Made by a program: the position numbers and the translations under genes. The notes under the pieces are model-generated. The model was not told the DNA's origin, did no database searches, and was given only the letters and a program-made list of their open reading frames with translations. From the NCBI GenBank assembly GCA_035474135.1, contig DATINP010000180.1, positions 20,599 through 84,598 on the forward strand: a stretch of 64,000 bases of DNA, written 5' to 3'. Each line of letters begins with the position of its first letter. Positions within the stretch are counted from its first letter, which is position 1. The DNA comes from Chloroflexia bacterium. GTDB taxonomy: Bacteria; Chloroflexota; Chloroflexia; QHBQ01; JADMIH01. This document shows, piece by piece, positions 3,283 through 62,316 of this stretch.

Positions 3283-4470
3283 CTAAGAATTAAGGACTTC
3301 CACTATGGTATCTATGACCTTCCTGTTTTCCTCTATTGTATTGTAGAAGTAGGGGGAGATGCGCACCGTGCCTGGGCGGTAGTCAACGATAATGTCCCGC
3401 TTGGCAAGCTCGCCTACTATTGTTGCGGGGTCGTCGAACTCCAGCATAACGATAGCCGTGCGCTCAGCGGGATTGGGATTGCCGCGCACCGTGAAGCCTG
3501 CCTCCTGTGCGTGCACGATCAAGTCTTCGGTGAGGGCGCTATCTCGCTCTCTGATCTTTTGCACCCCGATTTCTTCGATATAGGAAAGGCCGCCCAGCGC
3601 GGAATAGACGGCCGACATGCTGGGCGTTCCGGTTTCGAAGCGGGCCGCGTTGTCGCGCCACTGCAAGTCGCTAATGTCGAAGCTGAACATATTCGACATG
3701 CCAAACCAGCCCGCAATCGCAGGTTCCAGGTCGCGCCAGCGCTCGTGCACGTACATGAACGTGATACCCGAGCCGCCCATAAGCCATTTCAGGCTGCCGG
3801 AAGTATAGAAGTCGCAGTCACAATCGAGCACATCGGTGGGCACATGACCCGTGCCGTGATACGCGTCAACCAGCAGAAGTGCCCCCTTACTGTGCGCGAT
3901 CGCGGCCAGCTTCTTGATGTCCTGGATCGCGCCACTGGTGAAATAGACGTGCGACGTGACCACAAGGGCAGTGTCATCGTCAATGGCCGCTTCAAACATA
4001 TCCAGGGGGACGGTTACTTTGTCGGGGCTGCGCAGGAACTCCACCTGTAGGCCTTCGCGCTGTTTGGCGAGCAGGCTGTGGCCCACAGTCGAGAAATCTA
4101 GGTCGGTGGCAATGATCTTCTTGCGCTTGCTGAAGTCGAGCGCGCTCATGATGCCGGACAGATTGGCCGAGATTGATGGACCCAGCGCGATCCTGTCGGC
4201 GGGCGCGCCCACAATCCGCCCGTAACCTGCGCGCAGGTCTGCGCACTTGCCCAGCCAGGTCTTATACCAGGCAGACGCGCCCATCTCGGACCACAGGCTC
4301 AGGTACTCGTGTACATTGGCGATCGTGCGCATGCCAAGCGCGCCCAGCGAACAGGTATTGAGGAACGTCTTGTTCATCACAATCGGAAAGTCGTTGCGGT
4401 ATCTGAGCAGTTCGGGATGGGGGTCGGTCGGGTTGATGAAGGGGTCAGATTTCTTGTCGCCGATTTGCAT
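3283..4470 (-). CDS. PLP-dependent aminotransferase of class V fold (kynureninase-like).
   Basis: The SGSLKWLMGGSG lysine motif resembles the SxxK(Y/W)LxxGxG motif of kynureninase and cysteine desulfurase. 395 aa. Confidence 0.6.
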   Translation of the reverse strand: MQIGDKKSDPFINPTDPHPELLRYRNDFPIVMNKTFLNTCSLGALGMRTIANVHEYLSLWSEMGASAWYKTWLGKCADLRAGYGRIVGAPADRIALGPSISANLSGIMSALDFSKRKKIIATDLDFSTVGHSLLAKQREGLQVEFLRSPDKVTVPLDMFEAAIDDDTALVVTSHVYFTSGAIQDIKKLAAIAHSKGALLLVDAYHGTGHVPTDVLDCDCDFYTSGSLKWLMGGSGITFMYVHERWRDLEPAIAGWFGMSNMFSFDISDLQWRDNAARFETGTPSMSAVYSALGGLSYIEEIGVQKIRERDSALTEDLIVHAQEAGFTVRGNPNPAERTAIVMLEFDDPATIVGELAKRDIIVDYRPGTVRISPYFYNTIEENRKVIDTIVEVLNS

Positions 4471-13335: not shown

Positions 13336-13405
13336 ACCATAATTTACGATCGTGAAAACCTGGGTCTTCAACGTTTAGTACTTGAAAGCGGGATGTAACA
13401 AGAAG

Positions 13406-13440
13406 AAAGGGGTGGCCTGTAAAATCAGGCCACCCCTTTT
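13406..13440. terminator. Bidirectional rho-independent terminator hairpin.
   Basis: aaaggggtggcctg-taaaat-caggccacccctttt is a perfect 14-bp stem flanked by an A-run and a T-run. It sits between the convergent genes ending at 13335 and 13465. Confidence 0.6.
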
Positions 13441-13464
13441 GTATTCATATCTTACGCGGTTCGC

Positions 13465-15144
13465 CTACCTGGCGGCAGCCGCCTTGCGTCCGGCGCGCCT
13501 TAGGAACCAACCCGCGAGCAACATTAGCACCGACGCCGCGCCAAGCCACACCGGCAGGCTTGAAGGACCCGCGCCTGTGACGGGATTGACCCTGGGGGGT
13601 GAGCCGTCAACAGTTGATGGCTTGCCTCCGCTTGCATTACCCTTCGTTGAGCCATTGCCACTTGTCGCGTCAACCACCCCGCCGCCGTCGTTGCTGCTAT
13701 TAGGAGGCAGTACCTGTGCGGGTGGGGGCGCGGAAGTCGGGGCCGGTGTCGGCTTTAGCACGGTTGGGGCGGGCGTAGGCTTTTGAGGGGTTACACCGGG
13801 CTTCACATCAGAATCGCCCTTACTCTTATTTGATGTAGCCGTGGCTACAGGGACCGCGTGCGATGGCACCCCTGTTGGAATGAGCACTACGCCACTTGGC
13901 ACAGCCACTGGTACCAGAGCCGTGGACTGGGCCGGAGGCGCCGCCCCAGCGACAGTAGTACTTACGCCTTGCGGAACCGCAGGAGTAGCATTCGTGTTGG
14001 CGGTGCTCAGAGGAGGAGGCCCACCGTTTGGCGAATCGCCTGCATTACTACCGCCAGACCGTGGCGTAGCCGTTGCTGTATCTGCGGGCAGCACTGGCCC
14101 TTCTACAACGCTCTCAGGTTGAGCCGCGTTTGGTTGGGCAATAGCGCTCTCATTGCCTTGCGTGCCGTTCGGCTGGTCGCCACCTTGTGGGGCGTCTGCC
14201 TGCGATGTCGCCTGAGGCGCTTCGGTAGGAGGCGGTGCAGGTGTATCTGTGGCAAGCGGTGTAGCAGATGCCGTGGGGGTATCGGTAGCTATTGGTGTTG
14301 GGCTGATCTTCGGGCGCGCAGTTGGCGTAGGAGATGCGTCTTGTTGCGCGAGCGTAGCTGTTGCCTTGGGTTGCCCGGTGCCGCCGCCCTTCGTGGAAGG
14401 AGCGGTGGTATAGGTGGGTGGCACGAGACCTGGGGTATCAGTGGGCGCAATAGGCGTGGCGCTGGCGGTTGGTGCGGTCTGGCTGGTGGGGCTGGCCTCG
14501 GGACCTCCGGTGCCGCTCGCCCACAAGAGCACTTGCCCTGTGGCATTGCTGAACAGCGTGCCGTAAGGAAGATACACGGTAATGCTGTTGATGCCCGTAT
14601 TGGTCACGAGCAACGTACCATTACCCAATGCAGGGTTCTGCGTCGACGGAGTAAGGGTCAGGGGGGCGATAGTCGCCTGTCCACTCTGAACCACGGTCAA
14701 GAGATTACGACCATCGGGGTTCCAACTGGGGGTGCCGGGTGAACTGGCCGCTGCGTCCACGATGCGTTGGGCAATTGTGTGGTCTCCGGCAGGCCAGGCA
14801 TTGTTTTGCATCCACCATACCGCCAGGGCTACCTGGTCAGGTTCTGTTGCGGTATAGCCCCAATCAATGCCGTAGAAAAGAGCCGTGCGTACGGCATCAG
14901 GAGCGAGAGATTGTATGGCCAGGTCCAGCGTGCCTGTAGGCAGGGCGGCTCCGGGTTGCAGCGCGATGCCGCTCACTTCGATACTGCCAGTACTGCCTGC
15001 CGGAATTGTAACTGACCACCCGGGCACAGCGCCAAGGGGGGCTGCCAGGGCGGAAGATGAAAATAAGCCTGCAATACCAACGAAAAGGATAGCGCAAGCC
15101 GCCAACAAGCGTAGAGTACGACGGAGAAACCGGGGCTTATACAA
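13465..15144 (-). CDS. Secreted protein with a long Pro/Thr/Ala-rich low-complexity region and a C-terminal hydrophobic anchor followed by a basic tail.
   Basis: Signal peptide. A folded domain of about 200 aa is followed by an extensive PT-rich region. The C-terminus is LPVWLGAASVLMLLAGWFLRRAGRKAAAAR. Confidence 0.5.
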   Translation of the reverse strand: MYKPRFLRRTLRLLAACAILFVGIAGLFSSSALAAPLGAVPGWSVTIPAGSTGSIEVSGIALQPGAALPTGTLDLAIQSLAPDAVRTALFYGIDWGYTATEPDQVALAVWWMQNNAWPAGDHTIAQRIVDAAASSPGTPSWNPDGRNLLTVVQSGQATIAPLTLTPSTQNPALGNGTLLVTNTGINSITVYLPYGTLFSNATGQVLLWASGTGGPEASPTSQTAPTASATPIAPTDTPGLVPPTYTTAPSTKGGGTGQPKATATLAQQDASPTPTARPKISPTPIATDTPTASATPLATDTPAPPPTEAPQATSQADAPQGGDQPNGTQGNESAIAQPNAAQPESVVEGPVLPADTATATPRSGGSNAGDSPNGGPPPLSTANTNATPAVPQGVSTTVAGAAPPAQSTALVPVAVPSGVVLIPTGVPSHAVPVATATSNKSKGDSDVKPGVTPQKPTPAPTVLKPTPAPTSAPPPAQVLPPNSSNDGGGVVDATSGNGSTKGNASGGKPSTVDGSPPRVNPVTGAGPSSLPVWLGAASVLMLLAGWFLRRAGRKAAAAR

Positions 15145-15245
15145 CGGGTATCCTACCTTTCACGAACCGAATAACGCCAATTGAGTATACACGCGCGGCC
15201 GACGATTTGCAAGCAATTCATGTTGCAGGGCGTCCCAGGCCCTAT

Positions 15246-40680: not shown

Positions 40681-42633
40681 ATGACAGCGGAAGCAGAAGC
40701 ACCTGGATACGCGCCTTCGTCCGGTGGGCCAAGGTCCGATACTCACCCCCTGAGTCGCCTACCCAGTTTCCTGTTTCGAGTACCCCACTGGCTTTGGGCG
40801 GTGCTAGCGTATGCCCTGCTCACGGTGTTCATGACGTGGCCAATTGCTGCCAACCTTGCAACAGAGGTGCCTGGAGGCGGCGATGCCTGGCAGCACATCT
40901 GGAACCTGTGGTGGGTTAAGCACGCGTTGCTGACTCTCCACACAAACCCCTATCACACAGACCTGCTGTACTATCCCGATGGCGTGAACCTCTATTTCCA
41001 CACCCTGGTATTGACCGCGGGGCTCACCGCTATTCCACTTCAGCTTGCCGGCCTGAGCCTGATCACAAGCTACAACCTGATCTTGCTATCCACGTACGTG
41101 CTAGCCGGCCTCGGCGCGTTTCTGCTATGCCGCTACCTTACGCGCAATAGTTGGGCCTCCTTTGTGGGCGGGTTGGTGTTCGCGTTTGCGCCCTACCACT
41201 CGGCGCACCTATTCGGCCACATGAACCTGGCTTCCCTTCAGTGGATTCCTTTCTACGTTCTGCTGTTGTTGAAGGCAATTGGGTGGCCTTCGGCCCTTGA
41301 GCAGCGCGACACCGAGCGTGTTGCGGCGAGAGGCGTGTTGTACAACGCAATCCGCAATCCCTGGTCTGCGGTAGGTGCCGGAGCCCTGCTGGCGGTGAAC
41401 GCCTACACCGAGTGGACCTATGCGATTTTCCTGGTGCTGTTCACGGGGGTTATCCTGGCATGGCGAGTACTGTTGCCGTCCGAGCGTAGGGCTGTTAGCG
41501 CGGGGATAGGGTGGCCCGTGGTAGGAGCCAGGCTGGTGTTGATCGTTGTGACGTTTATGGTGCTGACAGCACCTATTTTCTTCCCCACGTTGGCCGAAGC
41601 CCGGCAAGGCTACGCGCAGCAACCACCGGATGAAACCCTTTTCTATTCGGCCGACCTAGTAAATGGCTTCCTACCGTCGGAGTTGCACCCCATATGGGGC
41701 GGGGCGGCTGCTGATACTGTGTCGCAGATTCCCCCCTATTTGCCGCTAAAGAATACTTCGGAGCGTGACCTGTTCCTGGGGTACACGGTGCTGGTGGTGG
41801 CGGCCTGGGGACTGTGGCGCCTGCGGCGAGATAGACGGGTTGTGTTCTGGGCGTTTGTCGCTGCGCTCATGTGGTTGCTCAGCCTCGGCCCCGTTTTGCA
41901 GGTGCTGGGCAAGACTGTGTTTACGTCGTTTCTGGTGAAGATACCACTGCCCTACTTACTCCTGTATAAACTGCCCCTGTTCAGCATTATGCGCACCCCG
42001 GCACGCTTCACTGTGCTGGTGATGCTGGCCCTCGCAGTGCTTGTGGCATATGCGCTGCGAGCGATTGCAAATGAACGACAGACGGCGGACAACAGACGGC
42101 GGGCGGCGATGGACGGCACCCCACTTACGTCGTCCGTCGTGCGCCGTCTGTCGTTCATCGTCATCCCCGTTCTGATTCTGTTCGAGTTCCTCGCGGTGTA
42201 CCCGATGGTGCCCCCTGGCTGGAATGTGCCGATCTATCAGAAGATCGCGGCGCAACCTGGCAATTTCGCCCTGCTTGAGTTGCCGATACGGCCCTTCGGC
42301 GACTATATGGCCTACCAGACTATACATGGCAAGCCCATCATCGGCGGCTATCTTTCGCGCCAGCCACCCTACCCGTTGCTCGATCAGAACAACGCGATTC
42401 ACTATCTCCTGGATGCTACAGCGCCGGACGATCCCATCGCGGCGTCCATAGAAGGTGGCGTTGGCGAGAGGTCGCTGCGTGACCTCGGCGTGAAGTATGT
42501 GATCATCCGCTGGTGGGCGTTCACCGCCGAGCAAAAGACCGCCATGCAGATCAAGCTGACAAACCTGCTGGCTCGCCCGCCCGATCTGTCCTACCCATCA
42601 GATCAGGTGGACGTGTGGCAGCTTAGTCCATAA
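40681..42633 (+). CDS. Large polytopic membrane protein, hypothetical (possibly GT-C/YfhO-like).
   Basis: More than 12 TM segments with large extracytoplasmic loops. There is no clear signature. Confidence 0.4.
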   Translation: MTAEAEAPGYAPSSGGPRSDTHPLSRLPSFLFRVPHWLWAVLAYALLTVFMTWPIAANLATEVPGGGDAWQHIWNLWWVKHALLTLHTNPYHTDLLYYPDGVNLYFHTLVLTAGLTAIPLQLAGLSLITSYNLILLSTYVLAGLGAFLLCRYLTRNSWASFVGGLVFAFAPYHSAHLFGHMNLASLQWIPFYVLLLLKAIGWPSALEQRDTERVAARGVLYNAIRNPWSAVGAGALLAVNAYTEWTYAIFLVLFTGVILAWRVLLPSERRAVSAGIGWPVVGARLVLIVVTFMVLTAPIFFPTLAEARQGYAQQPPDETLFYSADLVNGFLPSELHPIWGGAAADTVSQIPPYLPLKNTSERDLFLGYTVLVVAAWGLWRLRRDRRVVFWAFVAALMWLLSLGPVLQVLGKTVFTSFLVKIPLPYLLLYKLPLFSIMRTPARFTVLVMLALAVLVAYALRAIANERQTADNRRRAAMDGTPLTSSVVRRLSFIVIPVLILFEFLAVYPMVPPGWNVPIYQKIAAQPGNFALLELPIRPFGDYMAYQTIHGKPIIGGYLSRQPPYPLLDQNNAIHYLLDATAPDDPIAASIEGGVGERSLRDLGVKYVIIRWWAFTAEQKTAMQIKLTNLLARPPDLSYPSDQVDVWQLSP

Positions 42634-42692: not shown

Positions 42693-45629
42693 CTAAGGCT
42701 CGACAGTAGGGCGCACGGTCGGCTGGGGAGTTTGGGAAGTTGATTGCTGCGTTTGGCTCTGTGATTGTGCGGGGGTGGACGCCCCCTGGGCTGGTATAGC
42801 TGCTTCGTATACCCTGCGGCCCTCTGCTAGATACAGCTTATTCTTGCCTTCGTCCACTGACAGGCCGGACACACTCGTGACCTCCGAATCCGTGGGCGCT
42901 TGCAGGATTGACAGTGTTTTGCCATCCTTGTTTATGCGCGTTACGGTGCCGCCGTCTGACCGTAGAAGATACAGGTTTTGCACGTCGGTACCGGTGTACA
43001 GCAACGTTGGGTCGCTCATGCCTTGTGAGCTTTTCGGCGTGATGGTGGTCGTCAGTTTGCCGCCCTGCATGACCAGTATCTTGCCGTCGGCCAGCGTGAC
43101 ATAGATCGCGCCGTCGATAGCAATGGAGACTGGCGATTGCATAGCCGCCTTCGTGGCGTCGTCGGTTATCCAATCTGCCGGGCTTTCTCCGTACTGCCCC
43201 GACACATACTTGGATATCTGGCCGGGTTTGGCCCCCAGCAGGTACAGGTTGCCGTCGTAGGTGGCTATACCAACCGGCTGCTGGAGCGAGTCTGCCGAGC
43301 CAAGCTGCTGGGCGTTCCACGAGCCGCTATCGGCATTGTAAACGTAGGCAACGAATTGGGTGTCAAGCACGACCGGACTGCCCACACGCAAGGTGATCGC
43401 CAGCAGATCCCCCACTGTCGTCCCATCTACGTTCTCTCCCTTGCTGAGAAGTGGGCTGCACGCCTTGGCCGCTATCTGGCACCTGTAAATACGGTTCACC
43501 GTCTGGTCTAGCGCGTAGAGGTCATTGCCCTGGCCCACGATCTCCAACTTGCCTGGAGCCGGGGCTTGTGAAGGATTGGCGGCGCCCACTCCTGTGGTTG
43601 CGCTAATAGGATTGGCGGCCTGGTCAATTGCGTCGAGGTCAAAGAGCAGGTTCAGCGACGAGAGGCGGGTGATGCCGCGTGCGGTGTCGATTTCGCCATT
43701 TAGCTTCGTTATTAGCGTAGTCGCTTCTTGCGAAGTGGGGTCATCCACGGCCGCCTGGCGGGCCTTGTCCAGGGCGAGTTGCAGTTGCTCGAGGCGATCA
43801 GCATCGGCAACCCCGGTCTGGTTCGCAGACGTTTCCAGGGCCTGTGCGTCGGTCAACAGAGTGTGGGCGGCGGTCCTTTGCGGATTGCCTTTCATGCTGA
43901 TAAGGGAAAAAATCAGGATCCCTCCGACTACAGCAAGCACCCCCACGATAACCAGTCTGAGCGGCAACTGTGTCTTGCCCCCACCGCCTGCTGCAACGCC
44001 CGGTACGCGGCCCGCTATTTTGTCGGGCAGCATCGCTCGCAGAGTATTGCCTGCCAGTGACAACCCACGTTTTCCCAGGTCCCCCGCTATAGTGCGGGCA
44101 CTCGCCCGCGGTGCTTCCATCTCGTCGTCGACAATGCGCATATTGGGCTGGGCCGCCGTGGTTTCGACAGGTGCATCATAGCCCCTTAGGTACACGCTAC
44201 CGAGGTTATCGACATCTTCCGAGTCGCCCAGGAGGCGCGGCTTGTAGACTACATTGGGGGTGGCGTTAAACCTCGGATTATCGAGAGCGGGTGGGGTGTC
44301 TTCCCAACCGTCGAATTGAAGTTCTTCGTCCGGGTCGTCGTAGGTTGCGGGCAATGCTTGCGCGGTCGCGTGCGCCTGGTAGGGTGGCAATTCGGGGGTG
44401 CGCTGGACGAATAACTGAGTTGGTTGTCGCGACCAGATCGCACCGTCGTCGCTGTCGTTCTCGTCTTCCCCAGCCAAGTTGCCGTTTGACGCCGCTACCG
44501 GCTGTTCTGACTGTGGTAGCTGCGCGTTGCTGTGGCTTATCTCCTGGGAGTTGTCGCCGGGGTCGATCGAGTTTGCCTCGGAGCGGCGGCGTGTTAGCCA
44601 TTCCCGTGGGCCGCGCAAAGCCTCTATCAGGGTGCCGGGTTGCTTCGGCGCCTGTGGTTCGTGCGGCGCAGACGCTGCCCCACCGTCCTGGTCTACCCGC
44701 ACAGCAAGCTGCGGGGCAACCGGCACTGTATAATCCACGTCTACGCCGGAAGACACAGGTACGCCCAGTTCCAATACGCACGCGTGTGCTTCTGCGAGGG
44801 TGCGCTCCATCGCAAGCGTGTATAAGGCCTCGGCGATGCCATCGGCATCCTTCCAGGCGAAAGTCTGCTCGGCCCAGTCGCGCTCGATGTAGCGGGCCAG
44901 GTCCGACGAAACAAGGATGACCTTGTCCCCGGCACCAATACGTCTGTAGATCAGGTCTACGTCTACGCCCGGCCCGCTGCCCAGAGGCACCGCAGGATCC
45001 GGGAGGTCGGACACCATGACCGGCAAGTCAAGGTCTGCCTCTTCATCAGTTTCTTCAGCCGCGCTCTCTTCGTCGGCGCTGGCTATGCGGCGGAGGGTAA
45101 CTACCTGTCGTTCCGGCTGCTTCCAGGAGGGAGGTTCAGGCAGCGCGGACAGGACTTCGTTGTGCATAATGTAGGCCTGTGTGGGGGCCATCTGCGCCAG
45201 GTATAAACCGGCGCCATCGGGCCTGATCAGGACGGCGGTCATGCCAACGCGCGTCTTGCGAGTTTTGGATACCTGCCCGGCGTGCGCACTGTTGTGCTCG
45301 GGCCAACCGGTGCTATATTGCAAAACTCGGCTGTTGGCGGCGTCCAGTGCGTTCAACAGGCTGCCGGTCAGACCGAGGGATCGGTCAGAGAAGTAGCCTT
45401 CGATGACGGCGTTCTGCACGAGTCTGCAAGCATCTTCGCCCTGCGCAAAAGTCCCTGCAGGCTCGGTTATGAGCGCCAGGGTGCCGCGCTTCTGTAAACC
45501 GGGCGCTCCGGGGTGCACACACACCGAATAAGCTTCTGCATCAGCCTGTGCCCCACCAAACAGGGCGACTCTCCTACAGCTTAGTTCCAGACGGGCCATA
45601 TAACTCCCCCCATGCGAAATAACCGCCAA
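42693..45629 (-). CDS. Bitopic membrane protein of 978 aa with an N-terminal cytoplasmic degenerate PP2C-like domain, an acidic disordered region, one TM segment and a C-terminal extracytoplasmic repeat domain (beta-propeller-like).
   Basis: TRVGMTAVLIRPDGAGLYLAQMAPTQAYIM resembles the PP2C motif GsTAvvalI...aNvGDSRa with the metal-binding GDS lost. TM segment LRLVIVGVLAVVGGILIFSLI. The C-terminus has reiterated ...LYLL... blades. Confidence 0.4.
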   Translation of the reverse strand: MAVISHGGSYMARLELSCRRVALFGGAQADAEAYSVCVHPGAPGLQKRGTLALITEPAGTFAQGEDACRLVQNAVIEGYFSDRSLGLTGSLLNALDAANSRVLQYSTGWPEHNSAHAGQVSKTRKTRVGMTAVLIRPDGAGLYLAQMAPTQAYIMHNEVLSALPEPPSWKQPERQVVTLRRIASADEESAAEETDEEADLDLPVMVSDLPDPAVPLGSGPGVDVDLIYRRIGAGDKVILVSSDLARYIERDWAEQTFAWKDADGIAEALYTLAMERTLAEAHACVLELGVPVSSGVDVDYTVPVAPQLAVRVDQDGGAASAPHEPQAPKQPGTLIEALRGPREWLTRRRSEANSIDPGDNSQEISHSNAQLPQSEQPVAASNGNLAGEDENDSDDGAIWSRQPTQLFVQRTPELPPYQAHATAQALPATYDDPDEELQFDGWEDTPPALDNPRFNATPNVVYKPRLLGDSEDVDNLGSVYLRGYDAPVETTAAQPNMRIVDDEMEAPRASARTIAGDLGKRGLSLAGNTLRAMLPDKIAGRVPGVAAGGGGKTQLPLRLVIVGVLAVVGGILIFSLISMKGNPQRTAAHTLLTDAQALETSANQTGVADADRLEQLQLALDKARQAAVDDPTSQEATTLITKLNGEIDTARGITRLSSLNLLFDLDAIDQAANPISATTGVGAANPSQAPAPGKLEIVGQGNDLYALDQTVNRIYRCQIAAKACSPLLSKGENVDGTTVGDLLAITLRVGSPVVLDTQFVAYVYNADSGSWNAQQLGSADSLQQPVGIATYDGNLYLLGAKPGQISKYVSGQYGESPADWITDDATKAAMQSPVSIAIDGAIYVTLADGKILVMQGGKLTTTITPKSSQGMSDPTLLYTGTDVQNLYLLRSDGGTVTRINKDGKTLSILQAPTDSEVTSVSGLSVDEGKNKLYLAEGRRVYEAAIPAQGASTPAQSQSQTQQSTSQTPQPTVRPTVEP

Positions 45630-52658: not shown

Positions 52659-54002
52659 TTAATGGAACAGCGACGTGCCGAACATGAGGGCAACTGCAAC
52701 CGAGATAAGGACCACAGCGGCCCAGGCCAGCGTTTTGTAAACGGGGCCAATGGCATATTTCCCCATGATATCGCGGTTGCTTGCCAGTTTTACGATGAAG
52801 ATTAGAAGAATAGGCAGGAGAGCGCCGTTCAGGATTTGGACCGCAATCAGCACTGCAAACAGGGGCAGACCTGGTATCATTGCCACGACGGCCCCCAGCG
52901 CCAGCAGGATTGTGAACAGCCACATGAACACCGGGGCCTCACGAAAAGACAGGTTTACGCCTTTCTCGAAGCCGAGTGCTTCCGTTACAGAGAAGGCGGT
53001 GGCGAGCGGCAGCACCCCCGCAGCAAGCATGGAAGCGCCGAACAATCCTAGCCCGAAGAGTAAGGTAGCGCCCTGCCCTGCGACCGGCTCCAGTGCCTTG
53101 GCCGCATCGGCGGCGCTGTCCACCTGCGAGGCACCGTGCGTGAACAATGTGGCTGCTGTAGCGACGATGATAAACATCGAGACAATCTGAGCCAGGATAA
53201 CGCCGAATACTGTGTCGAAGCGCGTGTACTTGTAGTCGCTGAGCGTCACGCCCTTCTCGACGACGGTAGACTGGACGAAAAGCTGCATGTAGGGCGTGAC
53301 GCTTGTGCCTATGAGCGCAACAAGCGCCTGCAGGGCCATTGGCTGTAAATCGAGTTTGGGTTGGATTATCGCTGTGCCAACCTGGCCCCAGTCCGGCTTG
53401 GCCAGGAATGCCGCGATGATGTAGGTGAAGAAGACCAGCGACATCAGCATGAATACCTTTTCAACCGTCCGATATGAGCCGCTGGTTATCAGCCACCAGA
53501 CCACCAGTGCGATCGGAGGCACTGTAATCCAACCGGGTATACCGAACAGGTCGCCGGCAGCAGCGATACCAACGAACTCGGAGATTGTGACACCTGCATT
53601 GGCAATCAGTAGCACAAGCACGGCAAGCATCGCCCAGCTTGCACCGAACTGTTCGCGAATGAGGTCGGACAGCCCTTTGCCGGTCACCGCTCCCATGCGC
53701 GCGCACATCTCTTGCACCAAGATAAGGCAGATAGTTATTATCACCATGGACCACAGGAGTCCATAGCCGTAAGATGCGCCCGTCTGGGCATATGTGGCTA
53801 TTCCGCCTGCGTCATTGCCTGCGGCTGCCGACACCACGCCGGGGCCAAGCACGATCAGGTAGGCCCAAAAGGGCAAGCGCCGAACTTTCCTCAGGGGCGC
53901 AAAGGCGCGCGCCAGCAATCGAGCAGGGCCACTGTGGCCGTTCCCCTGCTCTTCCTCGGCAATAGCCTCTGTACTTGGCGTGTAGCGGTGTTTGGGTTCC
54001 AT
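52659..54002 (-). CDS. NRAMP/SLC11 family transporter with non-canonical metal-site residues (NRMT-like, candidate Mg2+ transporter).
   Basis: NRAMP fold, 447 aa. The TM1 motif reads GNDAGG where canonical MntH has DPGN. The TM6 motif reads GTSVTPY where canonical MntH has GATVMPH. The start ATG overlaps the stop of the upstream gene (TGATG). Confidence 0.8.
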   Translation of the reverse strand: MEPKHRYTPSTEAIAEEEQGNGHSGPARLLARAFAPLRKVRRLPFWAYLIVLGPGVVSAAAGNDAGGIATYAQTGASYGYGLLWSMVIITICLILVQEMCARMGAVTGKGLSDLIREQFGASWAMLAVLVLLIANAGVTISEFVGIAAAGDLFGIPGWITVPPIALVVWWLITSGSYRTVEKVFMLMSLVFFTYIIAAFLAKPDWGQVGTAIIQPKLDLQPMALQALVALIGTSVTPYMQLFVQSTVVEKGVTLSDYKYTRFDTVFGVILAQIVSMFIIVATAATLFTHGASQVDSAADAAKALEPVAGQGATLLFGLGLFGASMLAAGVLPLATAFSVTEALGFEKGVNLSFREAPVFMWLFTILLALGAVVAMIPGLPLFAVLIAVQILNGALLPILLIFIVKLASNRDIMGKYAIGPVYKTLAWAAVVLISVAVALMFGTSLFH

Positions 54003-55279
54003 CAGCTGAAAATTCTTGGGATGCGCTTCTTCCAGCCTTCAGGAAGAAGGGAGTCGAGGGCATCGTCTATCGTTATTACTCCCAGCAGCTTGTTATTGCG
54101 GTTTACCACCGGTAGGGCTAACAGGTTGTATTCCGCCATTTTTCGTGCTACCTCGCGCTCTTGCTCTCCCGGACGGACACTCAAGAACTCGGTAACCATG
54201 AAGTCGGCGACTTTGATGTCGCGCTCATTCACGAGCAGGTCGCGGACGGTTATGACGCCAACCAGATCGTCACTGTCGGCGGATTCTGTGACGTACATGT
54301 AGTAGATGAGATCAGATGACAGGAAGAGATCCCTATTCTGCTTTATTACTTCCTCGACAGTCATATCGGGTTGAACGCAGACAAAATCTGTGGTCATTGC
54401 GCGGCCCGCCGTATGGTCTGGGTAGCGGAGAAGCTGGCGCACATCGGCGGCTTCCTCATCGTCCATTTCCTCCAGCAAGGCGCCGGCCTTATCTTCGGGC
54501 AGTTCGGCCATGAGGTCAGTAGCCTCGTCAGGGGCCATTTCTTCGATGATGTCTGCGGCCCGTTCGTCGGGCATTTGTTCCACGAGGTCTTTCTGGCGGC
54601 CACCCTCTATTTCTTCCAGGGTGTCAGCAGCCAGGGTATCATCGAGCGCGGAGATTATCTCTGCCCCCTGGTGGTAGCTTACGGCGTCGGTAATGCGCGC
54701 GATTTCGACCGGATGCATTTTCGCGAGCTTTTGGTGTTTGAGGGCAACGCCTCCCGGCATGCTGGTTCCGAAGATGTCGAGGTTTTGCCAGGAAACAAGA
54801 GCAGGCTGCGCTGCCTTTGGGCGTACCAGGTTGAATAGCTTGCCCAGTTTCAAACGCCTCGCCAGGCCCGCCATACTTACATCCACCCCTACGATACGCC
54901 AATCGGACGTTCCACTTTCGGGCGTCTGATCTATGAAAACATCGTTTACCCGGAGGACGCGTCGTTGCTTGAGGTCTATGATTTGCCTGTCCCAGAAGTC
55001 TTTGGTGATCACCATCTCACCCTCGCGGCGCTCGAATGGCTCAAGGTCGAACCTGGCCGAATTGAGCATCACGCCCTCGTCCGAGAACGAATCGACCTGG
55101 GCTATGGGAATATAGAAAGGCGCTTTCGTGCGCCCAGTACGTGCCACCAGCGCCTTGATCACGGGGCCCGACTCGTTAATATCTTGCGCAAGATCGATGA
55201 CCACGTCGCGCAGACGAGCAACACTGTTGTCCGCCCGGTTCCTTATGGGTTTCCCGATCAGTTGAGATAGGTACGGCAT
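54002..55279 (-). CDS. Soluble PRC-barrel + MgtE N-terminal domain + CBS-pair protein (Mg2+-sensing-like regulatory module).
   Basis: N-terminal PRC-like GKPIRNRADNSVARLRDVVID. The acidic MgtE_N helical region is ISALDDTLAADTLEEIE...EEMDDEEAADVRQLL. Two CBS motifs follow. There is no TM domain. Start chosen at MPYLSQLIGK (55279). The track ORF extends to 55366. Confidence 0.65.
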   Translation of the reverse strand: MPYLSQLIGKPIRNRADNSVARLRDVVIDLAQDINESGPVIKALVARTGRTKAPFYIPIAQVDSFSDEGVMLNSARFDLEPFERREGEMVITKDFWDRQIIDLKQRRVLRVNDVFIDQTPESGTSDWRIVGVDVSMAGLARRLKLGKLFNLVRPKAAQPALVSWQNLDIFGTSMPGGVALKHQKLAKMHPVEIARITDAVSYHQGAEIISALDDTLAADTLEEIEGGRQKDLVEQMPDERAADIIEEMAPDEATDLMAELPEDKAGALLEEMDDEEAADVRQLLRYPDHTAGRAMTTDFVCVQPDMTVEEVIKQNRDLFLSSDLIYYMYVTESADSDDLVGVITVRDLLVNERDIKVADFMVTEFLSVRPGEQEREVARKMAEYNLLALPVVNRNNKLLGVITIDDALDSLLPEGWKKRIPRIFS

Positions 55280-55452
55280 ACTTTCTGATATAATAACGCA
55301 TCCGCTTCCAGAAGCGATTCCTTGATCAAGCGTGCCCGAACTATATGCACGGGATCGTCGTTCCAATTAACCAAGGTACTAGCGATAAACTTAAGAATTC
55401 CCCGGAGGGGATAATAGCACTTTATATGCCACAGGGGGTCGTAATTCGCACG

Positions 55453-56321: not shown

Positions 56322-56735
56322 TCACTTAGGTCCAAAGCTGGGCTGTGCGGGCGGTACGACCAGGTTGCTGGTAGGAATTTCGCCCGGCACGAGCGTCCCG
56401 CTTGACAGCGGCAGTTGGATAGTTGGAACGTCGCCCGCCCCGAGAGCGGTATTTGCACCGGGCGCGGGATTGCCTACATGGCTTCCACCCGTAGCGATCA
56501 GCCAGATAACAATGAGGAGCAAAAGGACGGTCGCCGACACGAGGCCACCCACGATGTACTGGTAGATTTCACTTCGGGGTTGTGGGGTGGTGCGTGCGTT
56601 GGCGCCACGGGTCACGGGCGGACCGAGACGCTCCTGCCTGCTGCCAATACCAGGTTGTACTTGCGTTGCGGGTGGTTCGGGTTCCGGTGGCAGTACCCGC
56701 CTGACACGGTTCCTATGTCCTTCTTGATCGCTCAT
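56322..56735 (-). CDS. Small bitopic membrane protein. It is a paralogue of the N-terminal anchor module of the neighbouring rhodanese protein.
   Basis: SEIYQYIVGGLVSATVLLLLIVIW versus DPFPYIMGGIIGAMIIGLGAVIFLIL in the 57499 gene. Both have a Pro/Arg-rich cytoplasmic N-terminus. Confidence 0.4.
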   Translation of the reverse strand: MSDQEGHRNRVRRVLPPEPEPPATQVQPGIGSRQERLGPPVTRGANARTTPQPRSEIYQYIVGGLVSATVLLLLIVIWLIATGGSHVGNPAPGANTALGAGDVPTIQLPLSSGTLVPGEIPTSNLVVPPAQPSFGPK

Positions 56736-56754
56736 GGATCACCATCCCATAGAA

Positions 56755-56782
56755 ACAGGGCGGGTTTCTTTCTACCCGCCCT
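56755..56782 (-). terminator. Rho-independent terminator-like hairpin downstream of the rhodanese gene.
   Basis: The top-strand sequence is cagggcggg-tttctttcta-cccgccctg (9-bp GC stem). On the minus strand it is followed by TTTCTAT. Confidence 0.4.
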
Positions 56783-56812
56783 GCTCATAACGTACAAGCA
56801 CTATTCTCAGCT

Positions 56813-57499
56813 TTAGGGTGTTGCTACCGGTTGCAGGCCCGTATCGCTCTTGCTGTTATCGACGAAGGGTGTACTGTTATTGCCTGTCTCGATCGGATAC
56901 CCCGCCGGATCAGTGCCGTTCATCTGTTTCCAGGTAGTCCAGCCGCCCAGTAATACTTGCAACTTGTCGTAGCTATAGCCGTATGTATCGTGAAGCTTCT
57001 GCGCCACACGGGCGCTTTCATTTTCAGCCGGTCATTGGCAGTAGGCCACGACCATCTTATCTTTCGGCACCTGATTGCTGGATACGTAGGTGTCTATGTC
57101 AGCTTCGGGCATCGATACAGCCCCGGCGATATGCCCCTCGGCATAACTCGCGACCGGGCGCACGTCCACGACGAGCGGCCGCTTGGCGGGATCGTCATAC
57201 AGAGCCTTGAAGTCGCCAATTGCCATGCGCGGGGGAGCGTCCGCATTAGCGGTCGCCGTTGGGCCTGCATTATTGTTGACCACTGTACCAGTGCTGTTGT
57301 TCGACAGTATGAGGAAAATGACCGCACCCAGGCCGATGATCATAGCCCCAATGATGCCGCCCATAATATATGGGAATGGGTCGCGTTGCGACTGGACGGC
57401 CCGCGGCCTCTCGCCATACCCTCCTCGACGTGGTGGCGGCCCACTTGTTCGGGTGGGAGGCCTGCTAGCGGGCGGTCGTTGTCTTGGCGGTTGACTCAT
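56813..57499 (-). CDS. Membrane-anchored extracytoplasmic rhodanese-domain protein interrupted by one in-frame TGA (57032-57034). It is a candidate selenocysteine codon, or else a pseudogene or sequencing error.
   Basis: The ORFs 57032..57499 and 56813..57007 are in the same frame. The joined translation is ...LVVDVRPVASYAEGHIAGAVSMP...KMVVAYCQ[TGA]PAENESARVAQKLHDTYGYSYDKLQVLLGGWTTWKQ. Both rhodanese signatures (HIAGA N-terminal, GGW C-terminal) are present, so the two halves form a single domain. Confidence 0.5.
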
Positions 57500-57516: not shown

Positions 57517-58395
57517 CTATCGGGCTATGACTTGCTGCATGTAATTTTCCACTATGGCTCCGCTCAGCATTGCTCCCACCTGTACGGCTTTGATTTTGCC
57601 ATCGGTGCCGATGAAGTAGGAACTTGGAACGGCAGCCACCTGGTAGCGATTGGCCGCGGTGAGATCACCATCGTGTACAAACTTCCAGTTGTACTTATAT
57701 TGGTTCACGAAGTTGAGTACCATGCTGGCAGAATCTTTGGGAGCCATAGACACCCCGATTACCTCAATCTGACCATAGTGCTTGGTATAAGCGGCCTCCA
57801 TTTCGGGCATTTCTGCTCGGCAAGGAGGGCACCACGTACCCCAGAAGTTCACGAATACCGGCTTACTGCCACGGAAAGAGGAGAGTGAAACGGTTTGGCC
57901 GTTCTCCTGCCAGGTAAAGTCGGGCGCAAATGAGCCTACGACAGGTTTCTGGTCCTCCGCCTGAGTGTCAGGGTCAAAACCCGTGAGTGCGGGCACGCCC
58001 GCGATAGGGGCGGTCGACGGAGCGCTCTTGGCCTGGCTCAGGTATAGCCATATGGCCACGCCGAAGATCGCCACCATCATCACGACCGATAGGCCAAGTA
58101 TTAATGCGCGTCCCCGGTTTACCGATAGGACAGCAACTTCTTCTCCATCCTCGTCGTATTCCGAATCCTGGTCGCTGTAACCTCGGCTATATTGCTGATA
58201 GCCTTCGCTATCTTCGTCTTCGACTTCTTCGTCTGCGTAACGGCTCGGCGCTCTAAGTGCGCGCGACTGAACAGGAGCACCGGGACTATAAATCGGTTCC
58301 TCTACGTCATCGTAGTCGTCAAGGGGCTGACCTTGCGGCGTTGGGTTGGATGCGGTCGAAGCTGTCATTGGTATGAGTACCTCCTTGGGAGGCAT
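57517..58395 (-). CDS. TlpA/ResA-like thiol-disulfide oxidoreductase. It is membrane-anchored with an acidic cytoplasmic N-terminus.
   Basis: WCPPC active site, thioredoxin fold, TM segment ALILGLSVVMMVAIFGVAIWLYL, and an N-terminal D/E/Y-rich region. Confidence 0.75.
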   Translation of the reverse strand: MPPKEVLIPMTASTASNPTPQGQPLDDYDDVEEPIYSPGAPVQSRALRAPSRYADEEVEDEDSEGYQQYSRGYSDQDSEYDEDGEEVAVLSVNRGRALILGLSVVMMVAIFGVAIWLYLSQAKSAPSTAPIAGVPALTGFDPDTQAEDQKPVVGSFAPDFTWQENGQTVSLSSFRGSKPVFVNFWGTWCPPCRAEMPEMEAAYTKHYGQIEVIGVSMAPKDSASMVLNFVNQYKYNWKFVHDGDLTAANRYQVAAVPSSYFIGTDGKIKAVQVGAMLSGAIVENYMQQVIAR

Positions 58396-58484: not shown

Positions 58485-59366
58485 TTAGCGAGCGATAACC
58501 TGGTTAATATAATTCTCCATGAGATCCCCATTCATTGCTCCCACCTGTACAATCTTAATTATGCCATCGGTGCCGATGAAGTAGGAACTCGGAACGGCAG
58601 CCACCTGGTAGCGGTCAGCTACCTTGAAGTCGCCATCGTGTACAAACTTCCAGTTGTACTTATATTGGTTCACGAAGTTGAGCACCATGCTTGCCGTGTC
58701 CTTGGGAGCCATAGACACCCCGATTACCTCGATTTGACCATAGTGCTTGGTGTAGGCCGTCTCCATCTCGGGCATTTCGCCACGGCAGGGAGGGCACCAC
58801 GTACCCCAGAAGTTCACGAACACGGGCTTACTGCCACGGAAAGAGGAGAGTGAAACGGTTTGACCATTCTCCTGCCAGGAGAAATCAGGCGCATATGAGC
58901 CCTGGTTGGGCTTCTGATTCTCCTTCTGGGTGTCCGCGTTGAAACCTGTTATGACAGGCACGCCGGCAATGGGAGCGGTTGGAGGAGCGCTATTGGCCTG
59001 GCTGAGATAGAGCCAGATTGCCACACCGAAAATCGCCACCATCACCACGACCGAAAGACCAAGTATGAGCGCGCGTCCTCGGTTTACAGACAGGACAGCA
59101 ACTTCTTCTCCATCCTCGTCTGCGTCCTTGTAAATCGCTTTCCGTGGGCGAGCAGCGTACCCGGAATTGTCTTCGTCGCTGTCATCCTCGTCGTCATCCT
59201 GGTATCGCGCCTGGAATCGGGCCGGTCGCGGCTTAGCCTGGGGGGCAGACGAATAGACCTCTTCTACGCCGTCATCATAATCGTCGACGGGTAGTTCTTG
59301 TGGTTTCAAGTTAGAGATCGTGGTGTCACTCATATCAAATCTACCTCTTTCCTGAGGTATGGTCAT
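58485..59366 (-). CDS. TlpA/ResA-like thiol-disulfide oxidoreductase, a tandem paralogue of the previous gene.
   Basis: Protein and DNA are near-identical to 57517..58395 over the TM and thioredoxin regions (WCPPCRGEMPEME versus WCPPCRAEMPEME). Confidence 0.75.
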   Translation of the reverse strand: MTIPQERGRFDMSDTTISNLKPQELPVDDYDDGVEEVYSSAPQAKPRPARFQARYQDDDEDDSDEDNSGYAARPRKAIYKDADEDGEEVAVLSVNRGRALILGLSVVVMVAIFGVAIWLYLSQANSAPPTAPIAGVPVITGFNADTQKENQKPNQGSYAPDFSWQENGQTVSLSSFRGSKPVFVNFWGTWCPPCRGEMPEMETAYTKHYGQIEVIGVSMAPKDTASMVLNFVNQYKYNWKFVHDGDFKVADRYQVAAVPSSYFIGTDGIIKIVQVGAMNGDLMENYINQVIAR

Positions 59367-59520
59367 CTAACAGTAAGGGCGTCTGCTAGTCTTAGTTTAG
59401 CGGATTGTGTGCGTAGTGTCAACAGTGGGACGGCTAGTGGCGCCCTTACCTCGTGGCGAAGTAAGTCGTACGATCGACAATCTACGGCTCAGCGAAACCG
59501 GTCTCACACCGCATGAATCA

Positions 59521-60366
59521 TCAACCCATAATGTCTTCGCCCCCGTCAACGTTTATTACGTTGCCGGTTACCCAGTCAGCCCCCGAGCCGGGTTTGGCCA
59601 GCAGGGCGATGAAGTTGGCGATGTCGGTGGGGAGAGTAAGCCTGCCTGAGGGGTTGCGGGAGAGGGCGACCTCGATCAGCTTCTCGTTGCCGGGGATGCG
59701 TCGCAGGGCAGGCGTATCGGTCACGCCTGCGAGGATCGAGTTCGCAGTGATGCCCCTTGGCGCCAGTTCCACGGCCAGTTGACGGATGTGCGATTCAAGT
59801 GCGGCTTTAGCGGCCGACACAGCGCCATAGTTGGGGACGATACGGTGCGAGCCTGCCGAGGTCATGGTGAAAATGCGTGAGCCGCGCCCCAACAGTCCTG
59901 CCCGCAGGGTGTCTTGTACCCAGTAGACAAGGGCGTGTGCCATGACGTCAAGGGTCATGTCCATGTTCGCCTGCTGGATCGTGTCGTCGGCCATGGGGGC
60001 GATGAAAGGCTTGAGTGTGCCGAACGCGAGCGAGTGCATGAGTACCCGGAAGCCTGAGCCGTCCATTGCCTCGGCCATTTTCTCGATAGCGTCCTTGCGG
60101 CGGTCAGGGTTGGCGGCGTTCATATTGAACGGGATGTACTTGCGCCCGGCCTTTTCTACTCGCGTTGTGACTTCCTCAAACAAATCCTGGTCGGTTGGCC
60201 GGCGCATATGCACTCCCACGATGTTGAGTCCCGCCTGCTCGGCCAGCGCGATCGCGGTGGTGCCTCCAAAGCCGGAGGACGAGCCGAGGATCAATGCCCA
60301 TTCGAGCGATTTGGGTTCGCTGGCCTGCGCGGCGTTGTCAGTGCTATTTTGCGTATTATCGGTCAT
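59521..60366 (-). CDS. SDR-family enoyl-ACP reductase-like protein (FabI/FabL-like).
   Basis: Gly-rich NAD(P) motif GSSSGFGG. The Y-x6-K catalytic pair is in NYGAVSAAKAALE. 281 aa. Confidence 0.6.
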   Translation of the reverse strand: MTDNTQNSTDNAAQASEPKSLEWALILGSSSGFGGTTAIALAEQAGLNIVGVHMRRPTDQDLFEEVTTRVEKAGRKYIPFNMNAANPDRRKDAIEKMAEAMDGSGFRVLMHSLAFGTLKPFIAPMADDTIQQANMDMTLDVMAHALVYWVQDTLRAGLLGRGSRIFTMTSAGSHRIVPNYGAVSAAKAALESHIRQLAVELAPRGITANSILAGVTDTPALRRIPGNEKLIEVALSRNPSGRLTLPTDIANFIALLAKPGSGADWVTGNVINVDGGEDIMG

Positions 60367-60423: not shown

Positions 60424-62316
60424 CTACCAGCGCACCCGCACGTCGCCCACGCGCCGGGTGATTTTCTGGGCGTCGAAATATTCCAGAAGGGGAATGGCGT
60501 ATTTGCGCGTCGTACCGAAAAGGTCGCGCATCAGCGCAACGTTGATCTCGCCGTGCTCATCTATGGTGTCCAATATGCGCCGGCGCATCTCGTCTAGTAC
60601 CGGTCGGGTGTAGTAGATGCCGTCCTCCAGCTTAACCAGTTCGCCGCTTTCGACCAAGGATGCTACCACATCGGGGTCCACGCCAAGCTCGGCAGGGGAC
60701 GGTGGGGAATAGCCCGACTTGACATAACTAGTGCGTAGGGCTTCAACCTGGGCCGTTTGCTCCGGAGTGTAGCTGGGGGCATGCTGGGGTGTGCGATAGG
60801 TAGTGGCTTCCTCGGCGATGGCGCCCAGTTCGACTGCGCGCTGCATGAGGTGTGGGAAGGCGCGGGCGGGTGTCGTGGCCGACATGCGGCTGCGCACCTC
60901 CTCCTTGCTCATGCCACGGCGGAGGGGATGCTGTTTGTGATAGATGGCAAGCAGGTTATGGACGCGGCGCACAGTGTCCTGAAATGCGTCCTCCGCGACG
61001 ATGATGGTCGACTGCGGGTTGCGGAGCACCGCCTGAGAGTCGCCTGTGAGAAGCAGTACCTTGCCGGTAGCGAGCAGGGATTGAATGGCTTCGGAGGCTT
61101 CCTCTTTGCCGAGCGACGATTTCTCTATGACGCTCTTTGCGTCCTGGGCGGTCATTCCCAGGGCCTGTAATATCAACTCTTCGGGCGTGCCCTTCTGGAG
61201 AGTTTCCAGCGCGCTCAAGGTTTCGGCGTGGAAGCGTTTGTGGCGGCGCGGGTGTACGTCGATCACCTGCCCGCCCCCGATAGTGAGGCTTGGTGAAGAA
61301 CGGCGCACTATATAGCGGTCGCCCTTGGCCAGCGCCACCTCGTCGCGCAGACGCAACTGCACCCAGGAGGTGCCGCCAGGCTCAAGCTTCTCGGTATCGA
61401 GCAGGGTCACCTGGGCCGGTGTTTCTGTTGACCCTGAGAAGAAGTCGAGCGCATCGTTCTGCTCGACGGGGGCGGGCGCGTCGGCCAGCAGGTGGAGATG
61501 CACGTCTATACGCTTTGTCGGCTGGAGCTTGCCGGGGAGCGCCAGCACCATCCCGCGCCTGACCTGGTCCACCTCCAACCCCACGAGGTTCACGGCCACT
61601 CTGTTTCCGGGGGGGATCGAATCAACTTTGTGCTTGTGGCTCTGGAGGCCCCTGATACGGCTCTTGAGGCCGCCGGGCACGAGTTCGACCTCCTGCCCCA
61701 CCTGTAGCGAGCCATCGATCAGCGTGCCCGTCACGACCGTACCAAAGCCCGAAATAGTGAAGGCCCGGTCGATGGCCAGGCGGGGTGCGCCACGGTCGGC
61801 GCGCGGTTGCGTTTGTTCCAAAAGGCGGTCGATCTCGGCGAGGAGTGCGGGTAGGTTATGTCCGGTCCGAGCGGATACGGGCACGATAGGCGCATCTTGT
61901 AGAGTGGTGCCTTTGAGCCTATCTCGGATCTCTTCCTCGACAAGGGCGCGCCATTCGTCGTCCACCATGTCCGTCTTGGTCAGCACCACTATGCCGCGCT
62001 CCACTCCGAGCAGATGCAGGATGTCGAGATGCTCCTCGGTCTGGGGCATGGGGCCTTCGTCGGCGGCGATCACCAACAGAGCAGCATCTAGGCCGCCCAC
62101 CCCCGCGAGCATATTCTTGATAAAACGCTCATGCCCCGGCACGTCCACTATGGACACCTCTTTGCCGGAGGGCAGAGTGAGCCACGCGAAGCCCAGGTCA
62201 ATGGTCATCTCGCGCGCCTTCTCTTCCTGAAGGCGGTCGGGGTCAATGCCTGTGATGGCCCGAACAAGTGTAGATTTGCCGTGATCGACGTGTCCGGCAG
62301 TTCCGAGTACGTACAT
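60424..62316 (-). CDS. selB: Selenocysteine-specific translation elongation factor SelB.
   Basis: The N-terminus GTAGHVDHGKSTLVRAITGIDPDRLQEEKAREMTIDLGFAW is nearly identical in pattern to E. coli SelB. GTPase domains are followed by C-terminal winged-helix domains ending ...RKYAIPLLEYFDAQKITRRVGDVRVRW (SECIS-binding WH4). Confidence 0.85.
   Translation of the reverse strand: MYVLGTAGHVDHGKSTLVRAITGIDPDRLQEEKAREMTIDLGFAWLTLPSGKEVSIVDVPGHERFIKNMLAGVGGLDAALLVIAADEGPMPQTEEHLDILHLLGVERGIVVLTKTDMVDDEWRALVEEEIRDRLKGTTLQDAPIVPVSARTGHNLPALLAEIDRLLEQTQPRADRGAPRLAIDRAFTISGFGTVVTGTLIDGSLQVGQEVELVPGGLKSRIRGLQSHKHKVDSIPPGNRVAVNLVGLEVDQVRRGMVLALPGKLQPTKRIDVHLHLLADAPAPVEQNDALDFFSGSTETPAQVTLLDTEKLEPGGTSWVQLRLRDEVALAKGDRYIVRRSSPSLTIGGGQVIDVHPRRHKRFHAETLSALETLQKGTPEELILQALGMTAQDAKSVIEKSSLGKEEASEAIQSLLATGKVLLLTGDSQAVLRNPQSTIIVAEDAFQDTVRRVHNLLAIYHKQHPLRRGMSKEEVRSRMSATTPARAFPHLMQRAVELGAIAEEATTYRTPQHAPSYTPEQTAQVEALRTSYVKSGYSPPSPAELGVDPDVVASLVESGELVKLEDGIYYTRPVLDEMRRRILDTIDEHGEINVALMRDLFGTTRKYAIPLLEYFDAQKITRRVGDVRVRW

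Follow-up and report, generated by a model that had tools for sequence, protein, structure and literature searches.

We analysed a 64-kb stretch of Chloroflexia DNA (contig DATINP010000180.1; hereafter the window, to which all positions refer) and find on its minus strand, at 56813..57499, a rhodanese gene interrupted by a single in-frame UGA. Judging from comparative sequence evidence, this UGA almost certainly encodes selenocysteine (Sec) in one intact gene. We consider it highly probable that the gene is a functional selenoprotein gene with Sec at UGA156, and that its product is a membrane Cys/Sec rhodanese reset by TlpA-like thioredoxins. The sequence data show that the gene is intact and has a rhodanese fold, that the UGA is conserved, that the codons downstream of it are under selection, that a hairpin following it is constrained, and that SelB is present and syntenic; all of this supports the selenoprotein reading. 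Related loci and fetched related proteins are numbered with the prefixes L and P, respectively.

The frame running from 57499 to 56813 comprises 228 codons followed by a TAA stop, and the TGA at 57034..57032, codon 156, is its only internal stop. An earlier note on this DNA had joined two minus-strand open reading frames (ORFs), 57032..57499 and 56813..57007, as same-frame halves of one rhodanese fold parted only by the TGA, and both points stand. The stop lies in the context …KDKMVVAYCQ-TGA-PAENESARVAQKLHDTYGYSYDKLQVLLGGW… (also recorded as VVAYCQ-stop-PAENESARVAQKL), which would give the motif C154-Q155-U156 in a product of ~24 kDa. With Cys set at the stop, the window protein matches Pfam PF00581 over residues 97-192 (56924..57211; profile positions 5-101 of 102, E 8.8e-14), scoring 52.2 bits against a gathering cut-off of 22.2. 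This match spans the TGA, and neither half-ORF alone is therefore a domain. We found no lesion in the gene besides the TGA, and its ortholog in L001 is 79% identical over the full 228 residues, across the UGA. The fold is also apparent in the database AlphaFold2 (AF2) model of P0004, a read-through homolog with Trp at the Sec position rather than the window protein itself: the predicted local distance difference test score exceeds 90 within the rhodanese domain, and the best Foldseek matches are rhodaneses (3tp9, 3nhv, 6mxv and 1gmx).

The UGA is conserved to a degree that is difficult to reconcile with accident. A scan of one genome per species returned 45 loci, 43 of them from Chloroflexia/Chloroflexota metagenome-assembled genomes; the Chloroflexia/Chloroflexota loci hold 46 gene copies, with two or more paralogs in several genomes. 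All 46 copies, drawn from many assemblies and sequencing projects, carry TGA at the identical codon, and all keep the frame after it (PAENESARVAQKLH…LKVLLGGW). Both the Cys154 and the Sec156 positions are invariant in these copies. Protein databases give the same picture from the other side, as truncations. A first search yielded 99 relatives (39-83% identity), 96 of which end at "…YCQ"; the rest are two Joint Genome Institute (JGI) calls that continue with W ("WPAENESARVA…") and one fragment cut off before the site. In the larger set of fetched relatives, 238 of 305 end at YCx. The median pairwise ratio of nonsynonymous to synonymous substitution rates (dN/dS) is 0.20 over the 45 codons before the UGA and 0.20 over the 36 codons after it. 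Because the two values are equal, we conclude that the part after the UGA is translated and under selection. The codons that flank the UGA are also restricted: of the 44 Gln codons found just before it (57035-57037), 43 are CAA, and the following codon (57029-57031) is CCG in 40 of 46 copies. This pattern suggests an extra local context constraint, either on Sec decoding or on avoidance of termination.

Homologs with an ordinary codon at this position carry Cys. Such CxC proteins include P0183 (YCHCPNEEESARVAQ), P0198 (YCQCPDEGES), P0237, P0264 and P0290, and they are few relative to the Sec forms. Among 127 proteins of the 150 best matches listed, at least 64 end at the Sec position and 6 are CxC; Sec forms thus appear to predominate over Cys forms among the closest relatives, which is mildly notable. 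The closest Cys form, P0100 from L046 (AYCACSADSGAVRVAQ), has lost the hairpin, and its contig carries a TAG at a conserved Tyr. We therefore regard it as a weak Sec/Cys pair, rejected it as a clean close Cys ortholog, and relied on the more distant CxC proteins. L046 and a second locus show further variation in this family. The Cys-converted paralog of L046 (1760-2503, plus strand; AYCACSADSG) lacks the hairpin and has its TAG in FKALYD, in place of the conserved Tyr; either decay of the copy or faulty assembly could explain this. A PCYCGC-domain gene also adjoins this paralog. The same locus holds a Sec-type paralog (262-852, minus strand; ILYCQ-UGA-PNDEESARVA) with the hairpin present. At ~10001-10920 (plus strand) of L039, one ORF contains two rhodanese domains, each with a TGA after YCQ, and is predicted to yield a two-Sec protein. 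L044 and L045 were rejected as family members, being canonical CoA-disulfide-reductase-rhodanese fusions (YCQVGQRG).

A hairpin downstream of the UGA is a good candidate for a bacterial selenocysteine insertion sequence (SECIS). The element, GCGCC-CGUGU-GGCGC (57001..57015, minus strand), has a 5-bp G+C stem and a 5-nt loop with GU. It starts 16 nt past the UGA, places its apical loop 21 nt past it, and has a minimum free energy (MFE) of -9.1 kcal/mol. These values fall within the published bacterial SECIS consensus of a stem of at least 4 bp, a UGA-loop distance of 16-37 nt and an MFE of -7.5 kcal/mol or lower (PMC13188914). Codons +6 to +10 after the UGA read AGC GCC CGT GTG GCG in essentially every copy. 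Their synonymous codon entropy is 0-0.15 bits, whereas other invariant Ala, Leu, Val and Gly codons reach 1.1-2.2 bits. Likewise, synonymous divergence (dS) is 0.25 over the hairpin stretch and ~1.4-1.5 in its flanks. The frozen synonymous stretch coincides with the hairpin and is the most constrained nucleotide stretch of the gene, an unusual invariance that is itself mildly notable. The earlier note correctly had the element start 16 nt after the UGA; its label as a weak candidate was not deserved. The 15-nt motif occurs once in the window and, across 49 loci, only after rhodanese UGAs. After the second UGA of the L039 protein (VVLYCQ-UGA-PNDEES) comes another hairpin, GAGAGCAA-GCGCG-UUGCUCUC, which differs from the first and is longer; its loop lies 20 nt from the UGA. 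A second hairpin at a matching loop distance is independent support for the SECIS reading.

The factor that would use such an element is encoded nearby. The gene at 60424..62316 (minus strand) is selB, the Sec-specific elongation factor: its product scores 360 bits with TIGR00475 (cut-off 242) and contains the SelB-specific winged-helix and beta-barrel Pfam domains. The stop-codon end of selB (60424) is the end nearer the rhodanese gene and lies 3.4 kb from the TGA, as had been noted from the sequence. The order selB, short-chain dehydrogenase, TlpA-like gene, rhodanese recurs in eight relatives (L001-L005, L015, L018 and L027) and thus in nine genomes with the window. Taken together, the invariant TGA, the downstream selection, the Cys homologs, the frozen hairpin and the selB synteny strongly support the Cys-x-Sec selenoprotein that was originally proposed.

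Several observations weigh against this interpretation. Genes for the rest of the Sec machinery, selA, selD and tRNA-Sec (selC), were not found in the 64-kb window with ARAGORN and Pfam searches of 36 further ORFs, nor did ARAGORN detect tRNA-Sec in the 43 Chloroflexia/Chloroflexota loci, where selA and selD were not looked for. The hairpin co-variation that one might hope to see in orthologs is absent: the five core pairs show no compensatory double changes because the stem never varies, and the only pair to change is the optional sixth, where two sequences have G-C in place of A-U. In a 40-nt context the folding energy is unexceptional relative to shuffled sequences (z = -0.26). A competing helix (alignment columns 31-38 with 45-52) pairs equally often, in 86% of cells; it does not account for the frozen AGC GCC codons. 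At the level of the protein, the active-site loop C-Q-U-P-A-E-N-E-S is unusually long and acidic and has no Arg or Lys, which argues against classical thiosulfate sulfurtransferase activity. Rfam searches around the site, at gathering thresholds and at permissive E-values, returned no relevant match; to our knowledge, no Rfam model covers such a bacterial SECIS.

How else could the interrupted frame be explained? In one sequence, a single in-frame stop would likewise be the mark of a pseudogene, or of faulty sequencing or assembly of an ordinary rhodanese with Cys or Trp there, and the Cys-type paralog P0100 does carry a TAG and looks decayed. The earlier note had kept these possibilities in view. 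They are effectively refuted by a TGA that recurs in 46 independent copies, by the hundreds of metagenomic ORFs that end at YCQ, and by an otherwise intact gene with equal dN/dS on both sides of the stop; we assign them a negligible probability. Alternatively, the UGA could be read without selenium, through a genome-wide reassignment of UGA to Trp or Gly or through hairpin-stimulated insertion of Cys or Trp by a near-cognate tRNA. The JGI calls P0004, P0005 and P0190, which translate the codon as W, fit such a scheme, as does the lack of selA, selD and selC in the sequence searched. However, 13 of the 43 window genes that we checked end in TGA, and reading past it would extend them briefly or not at all; the genetic code is therefore standard. 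A dedicated SelB is encoded beside the gene in nine genomes, homologs without the UGA carry Cys and not Trp, and the geometry of the hairpin fits a bacterial SECIS. Decoding without selenium is thus very unlikely.

If Sec is inserted, one can further ask which residue of the C154-Q155-U156 motif is catalytic. We lean slightly towards Cys154 at the canonical catalytic position, with Sec at +2 and a loop two residues longer than usual, because strand-anchored alignments and the AF2 model place it there. Cys154 falls on the canonical Cys in an ungapped match to BH2092 (PDB 3NHV; …ITYCWGPACNGATK…, …ITYCWGPA…) and on that of the canonical relatives in L044 and L045 (…LIVAYCQVGQRG…). In the model of P0004, Tyr113 is the last residue of the strand, and Glu119, five residues after the Cys, is the first of the helix. 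It is also conceivable that Sec156 is itself the canonical catalytic residue, forming a perselenide/persulfide in a classical sulfurtransferase, and that Cys154 is a mere strand neighbor; adjacency to TlpA-like genes would then reflect shared localization and not a redox relay. A helix-anchored HMMER alignment to 6mxv places Sec on the catalytic Cys, restoring a standard six-residue loop U-PAENE-S and matching the helix SARVAQKL to S-xxx-A-xx-L, and other rhodanese selenoprotein forms (UxxS, UxxG) have Sec in place of the catalytic Cys. Set against this are the strand-anchored alignments and the AF2 model, the invariance of Cys154 in all copies, and a loop that offers no basic residue for thiosulfate binding. 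We consider this alternative as a whole rather improbable, though clearly less so than the non-selenium readings. The proposal in the earlier note that Sec lies at +2 of a retained catalytic Cys is thus favored by the strand-anchored evidence and challenged by the 6mxv alignment.

The selenoprotein is predicted to act outside the cytoplasmic membrane. Its layout is an Arg/Pro-rich N-terminus, one transmembrane helix, a low-complexity linker and a single rhodanese domain. The putative anchor (57302..57370, minus strand; residues ~44-66, YIMGGIIGAMIIGLGAVIFLILS) was read from the sequence; the equivalent segment is a helix in the AF2 model of P0004, and the consensus RDPFPYIMGGxIGALVVGL is kept in the anchor region across the family. 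Ahead of the hydrophobic segment lie 9 Arg and 2 acidic residues, and the tail has a net charge of ~+7. Because the positive-inside rule, applied to this Arg-rich N-terminus, keeps the tail in the cytoplasm, the rhodanese domain is predicted to face outward, like TlpA/ResA domains.

Two TlpA/ResA-like thioredoxin genes lie upstream. The first (57517..58395, minus strand) is directly adjacent to the rhodanese gene and encodes a putative redox partner; its product matches the AhpC-TSA, Redoxin and Thioredoxin families of Pfam, and ResA is its best NCBIfam match. The second (58485..59366, minus strand) is a tandem paralog, 72% identical to the first; the two are nearly identical from the membrane anchor onward. 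Each encodes one membrane anchor, a thioredoxin fold and a WCPPC motif. The duplication looks lineage-specific, since the closest relative, L001, has one copy at this place. More broadly, 25 of 43 loci have a TlpA/ResA-like gene as the immediate upstream neighbor of the rhodanese, and in 2 more such a gene follows it directly. Neither cytochrome c maturation genes nor CcdA/DsbD genes turned up near the TlpA-like genes. A promoter-like site (TTGACA-17-TAAACT; 59394..59422, minus strand), identified by consensus match, lies 28 nt upstream of the first thioredoxin gene to be transcribed, and a terminator-like hairpin (CAGGGCGGG-(10 nt)-CCCGCCCUG, then UUUCU; 56751..56783, minus strand) can be read just past the rhodanese stop. 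This hairpin is absent from our hairpin scan, which covered loops of up to 8 nt. Because these signals bracket the three genes, Tlp-Tlp-rhodanese may form one transcription unit.

These features suggest an extracytoplasmic Cys/Sec pair, redox-active or sulfur-transferring, that works with a TlpA-like thioredoxin. In the mechanism we envision, SelB·GTP·Sec-tRNA(Sec) would bind the loop of GCGCC-CGUGU-GGCGC and decode UGA156 as Sec. The 228-residue product would keep its Arg-rich tail in the cytoplasm and, through one anchor and a linker, would present the rhodanese domain on the outer face of the membrane. There the Cys154-x-Sec156 pair would most plausibly cycle between thiol/selenol and selenenylsulfide states, or hold sulfane sulfur or selenium as a single atom. 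Re-reduction of the pair would fall to the WCPPC motifs of the TlpA/ResA-like thioredoxins, which are membrane-anchored and presumably co-transcribed; we propose this resetting step because the genes are adjacent and because a fused protein, TsoB, exists that both gene products weakly match. In this scheme we infer the actual insertion of Sec, the outward topology, the selenenylsulfide cycle, the role of TlpA as reductant, and the substrate.

A short-chain dehydrogenase gene (FabL/FabI-like; 59521..60366, minus strand) lies between selB and the thioredoxin genes and is syntenic. Immediately downstream of the rhodanese, at 56322-56735 (minus strand), is a gene for a 137-residue protein with a Pro/Arg-rich N-terminus and one hydrophobic helix, which recalls how the rhodanese protein is built at its N-terminal end; L001 conserves this protein (58%), and neither Pfam nor NCBIfam has a family match for it. 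Further along, at 52659-55366 (minus strand), an Nramp metal transporter gene overlaps an MgtE_N/CBS (plus PRC-barrel) gene by one base. This pair is syntenic with the selB-rhodanese block in relatives; in L047 its equivalent lies at 12569-15213 and is followed by a CMD/AhpD-like gene, and some members of that family are known selenoproteins. Among the genes annotated, just one has even a remote relation to selenium or sulfur; it encodes a class-V aminotransferase (Aminotran_5, with a kynureninase-like C-terminus; 3283..4470, minus strand), whose fold family includes cysteine desulfurases and selenocysteine lyases. Four large ORFs in the window had no Pfam match at E <=1e-5: 42693-45629 (minus strand), 40681-42633 (plus), 9328-11016 (plus) and 13465-15144 (minus), of 978, 650, 562 and 559 residues, respectively.

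The main value of these results is the correction of annotation. In NCBI, members of this clade appear as truncated entries under the name 'rhodanese-like domain-containing protein'. Most gene callers stop at YCQ, and the C-terminal half is sometimes called as a separate small ORF (e.g. L049, 10601-10813); P0004, P0005 and P0190, the JGI metagenome calls that read through the Sec UGA as Trp, apparently do so because a UGA=Trp code was used. With Sec at this codon, hundreds of public Chloroflexia and metagenome calls are wrong, whether they end early at YCQ, fall into two pieces or show a Trp. Since the existing CxU model, NF041203, does not reach the clade, widening it or building another would mend these annotations. 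The family also offers a clean, highly conserved short SECIS for a little-studied phylum, and an example of a Sec enzyme that, given the predicted topology, would sit beside TlpA-like reductases on the outer side of the cytoplasmic membrane. Catalogues have included CxU rhodanese selenoproteins for ~20 years.

One could go further and envision that soil Chloroflexia have here a module of its own kind, extracytoplasmic and almost obligately dependent on selenium, in which an anchored Cys-x-Sec rhodanese is served by dedicated TlpA-like reductants. We offer this broader view tentatively and think it doubtful as a whole. If it were true, the excess of Sec over Cys forms would be the opposite of the general rule for selenoproteins, and the tight synteny with selB would imply that the rhodanese is a main reason why these largely aerobic bacteria keep the Sec machinery. 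In that case, the long acidic loop would speak for some substrate besides thiosulfate, such as a cationic metal, a metalloid or a protein persulfide.

Sec-containing rhodaneses have been described before. 'Rhodanese-related sulfurtransferase' selenoproteins were already present in the Sargasso Sea study (PMC1088965), a 2022 review has an entry "COG0607 form 2 (CxU)", and a 2026 catalogue distinguishes five forms: form 1 (UxxS), forms 2 and 4 (UxxG), form 3 (CxU), and form 5, TsoB (UxxxxU). The CxU form, which corresponds to NCBIfam NF041203, rhodanese_LYCAU, is listed in PMC13188914 and PMC9312934, both of which cite Zhang & Gladyshev 2005. The earlier note implied that a Sec beside a retained Cys would be new, on the grounds that reported Sec residues replace the catalytic Cys; this was mistaken. 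The concept of a CxU rhodanese selenoprotein has been known since 2005, and the window gene is an unannotated Chloroflexia branch of it. In a limited literature collection we found no paper on this Chloroflexia clade, its anchor or its TlpA/selB synteny.

NF041203 is accordingly the nearest known family. Like the window protein, it has a single rhodanese domain whose central strand ends in a Cys-x-Sec motif, and decoding by UGA and a bacterial SECIS. No other NCBIfam model matches the window protein better (67.7 bits), and this holds for each of the 28 clade members tested. None of the 28 reaches its curated cut-off of 115 bits (best E 2.3e-26), which places the clade outside the NF041203 equivalog. 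The motif is AYCQU in our clade and LYCAU in NF041203. In our clade we also see an Arg/Pro-rich tail at the N-terminus, followed by a membrane anchor, and a TlpA-like neighbor. Forms 1, 2 and 4 share the rhodanese fold and a Sec in the active-site loop; there, Sec replaces the catalytic Cys, whereas the window protein keeps the Cys and has Sec two residues later. The classical GlpE/PspE pattern, a six-residue loop C-x-x-G-x-[R/S/T] with basic residues, is not seen in CQUPAENES, which is acidic and, counted from Cys154, two residues longer, and the GlpE and PspE models give 17-28 bits against cut-offs above 100.

Among solved structures, the closest by sequence is BH2092 of Bacillus halodurans (PDB 3NHV, 3O3W), a structural-genomics rhodanese that aligns without gaps through an equally long loop (YCWGPACNGATK vs YCQUPAENESAR). 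Unlike the window protein, BH2092 has no Sec, places its second Cys at another position and is cytoplasmic; its function is uncharacterized. The two upstream gene products, for their part, share one anchor, the thioredoxin fold and WCPPC with the TlpA/ResA extracytoplasmic thiol-disulfide reductases; ResA is the best NCBIfam match of both, and they score below the cut-offs of the ResA, TlpA and StoA models. These two halves of the locus have a parallel in TsoB (NF045694), a rhodanese/DsbD fusion-like protein that unites a Sec rhodanese, membrane thiol-disulfide transfer and thioredoxin-like modules. TsoB differs from the window protein in its motif, its two Sec residues and its fused architecture; the window rhodanese lacks UxxxxU and scores 20.3 bits, against a cut-off of 805. 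The rhodanese and both TlpA-like proteins give weak matches, of ~20 bits for the rhodanese, to different parts of NF045694, and the rhodanese-TlpA gene pair therefore resembles an unfused TsoB.

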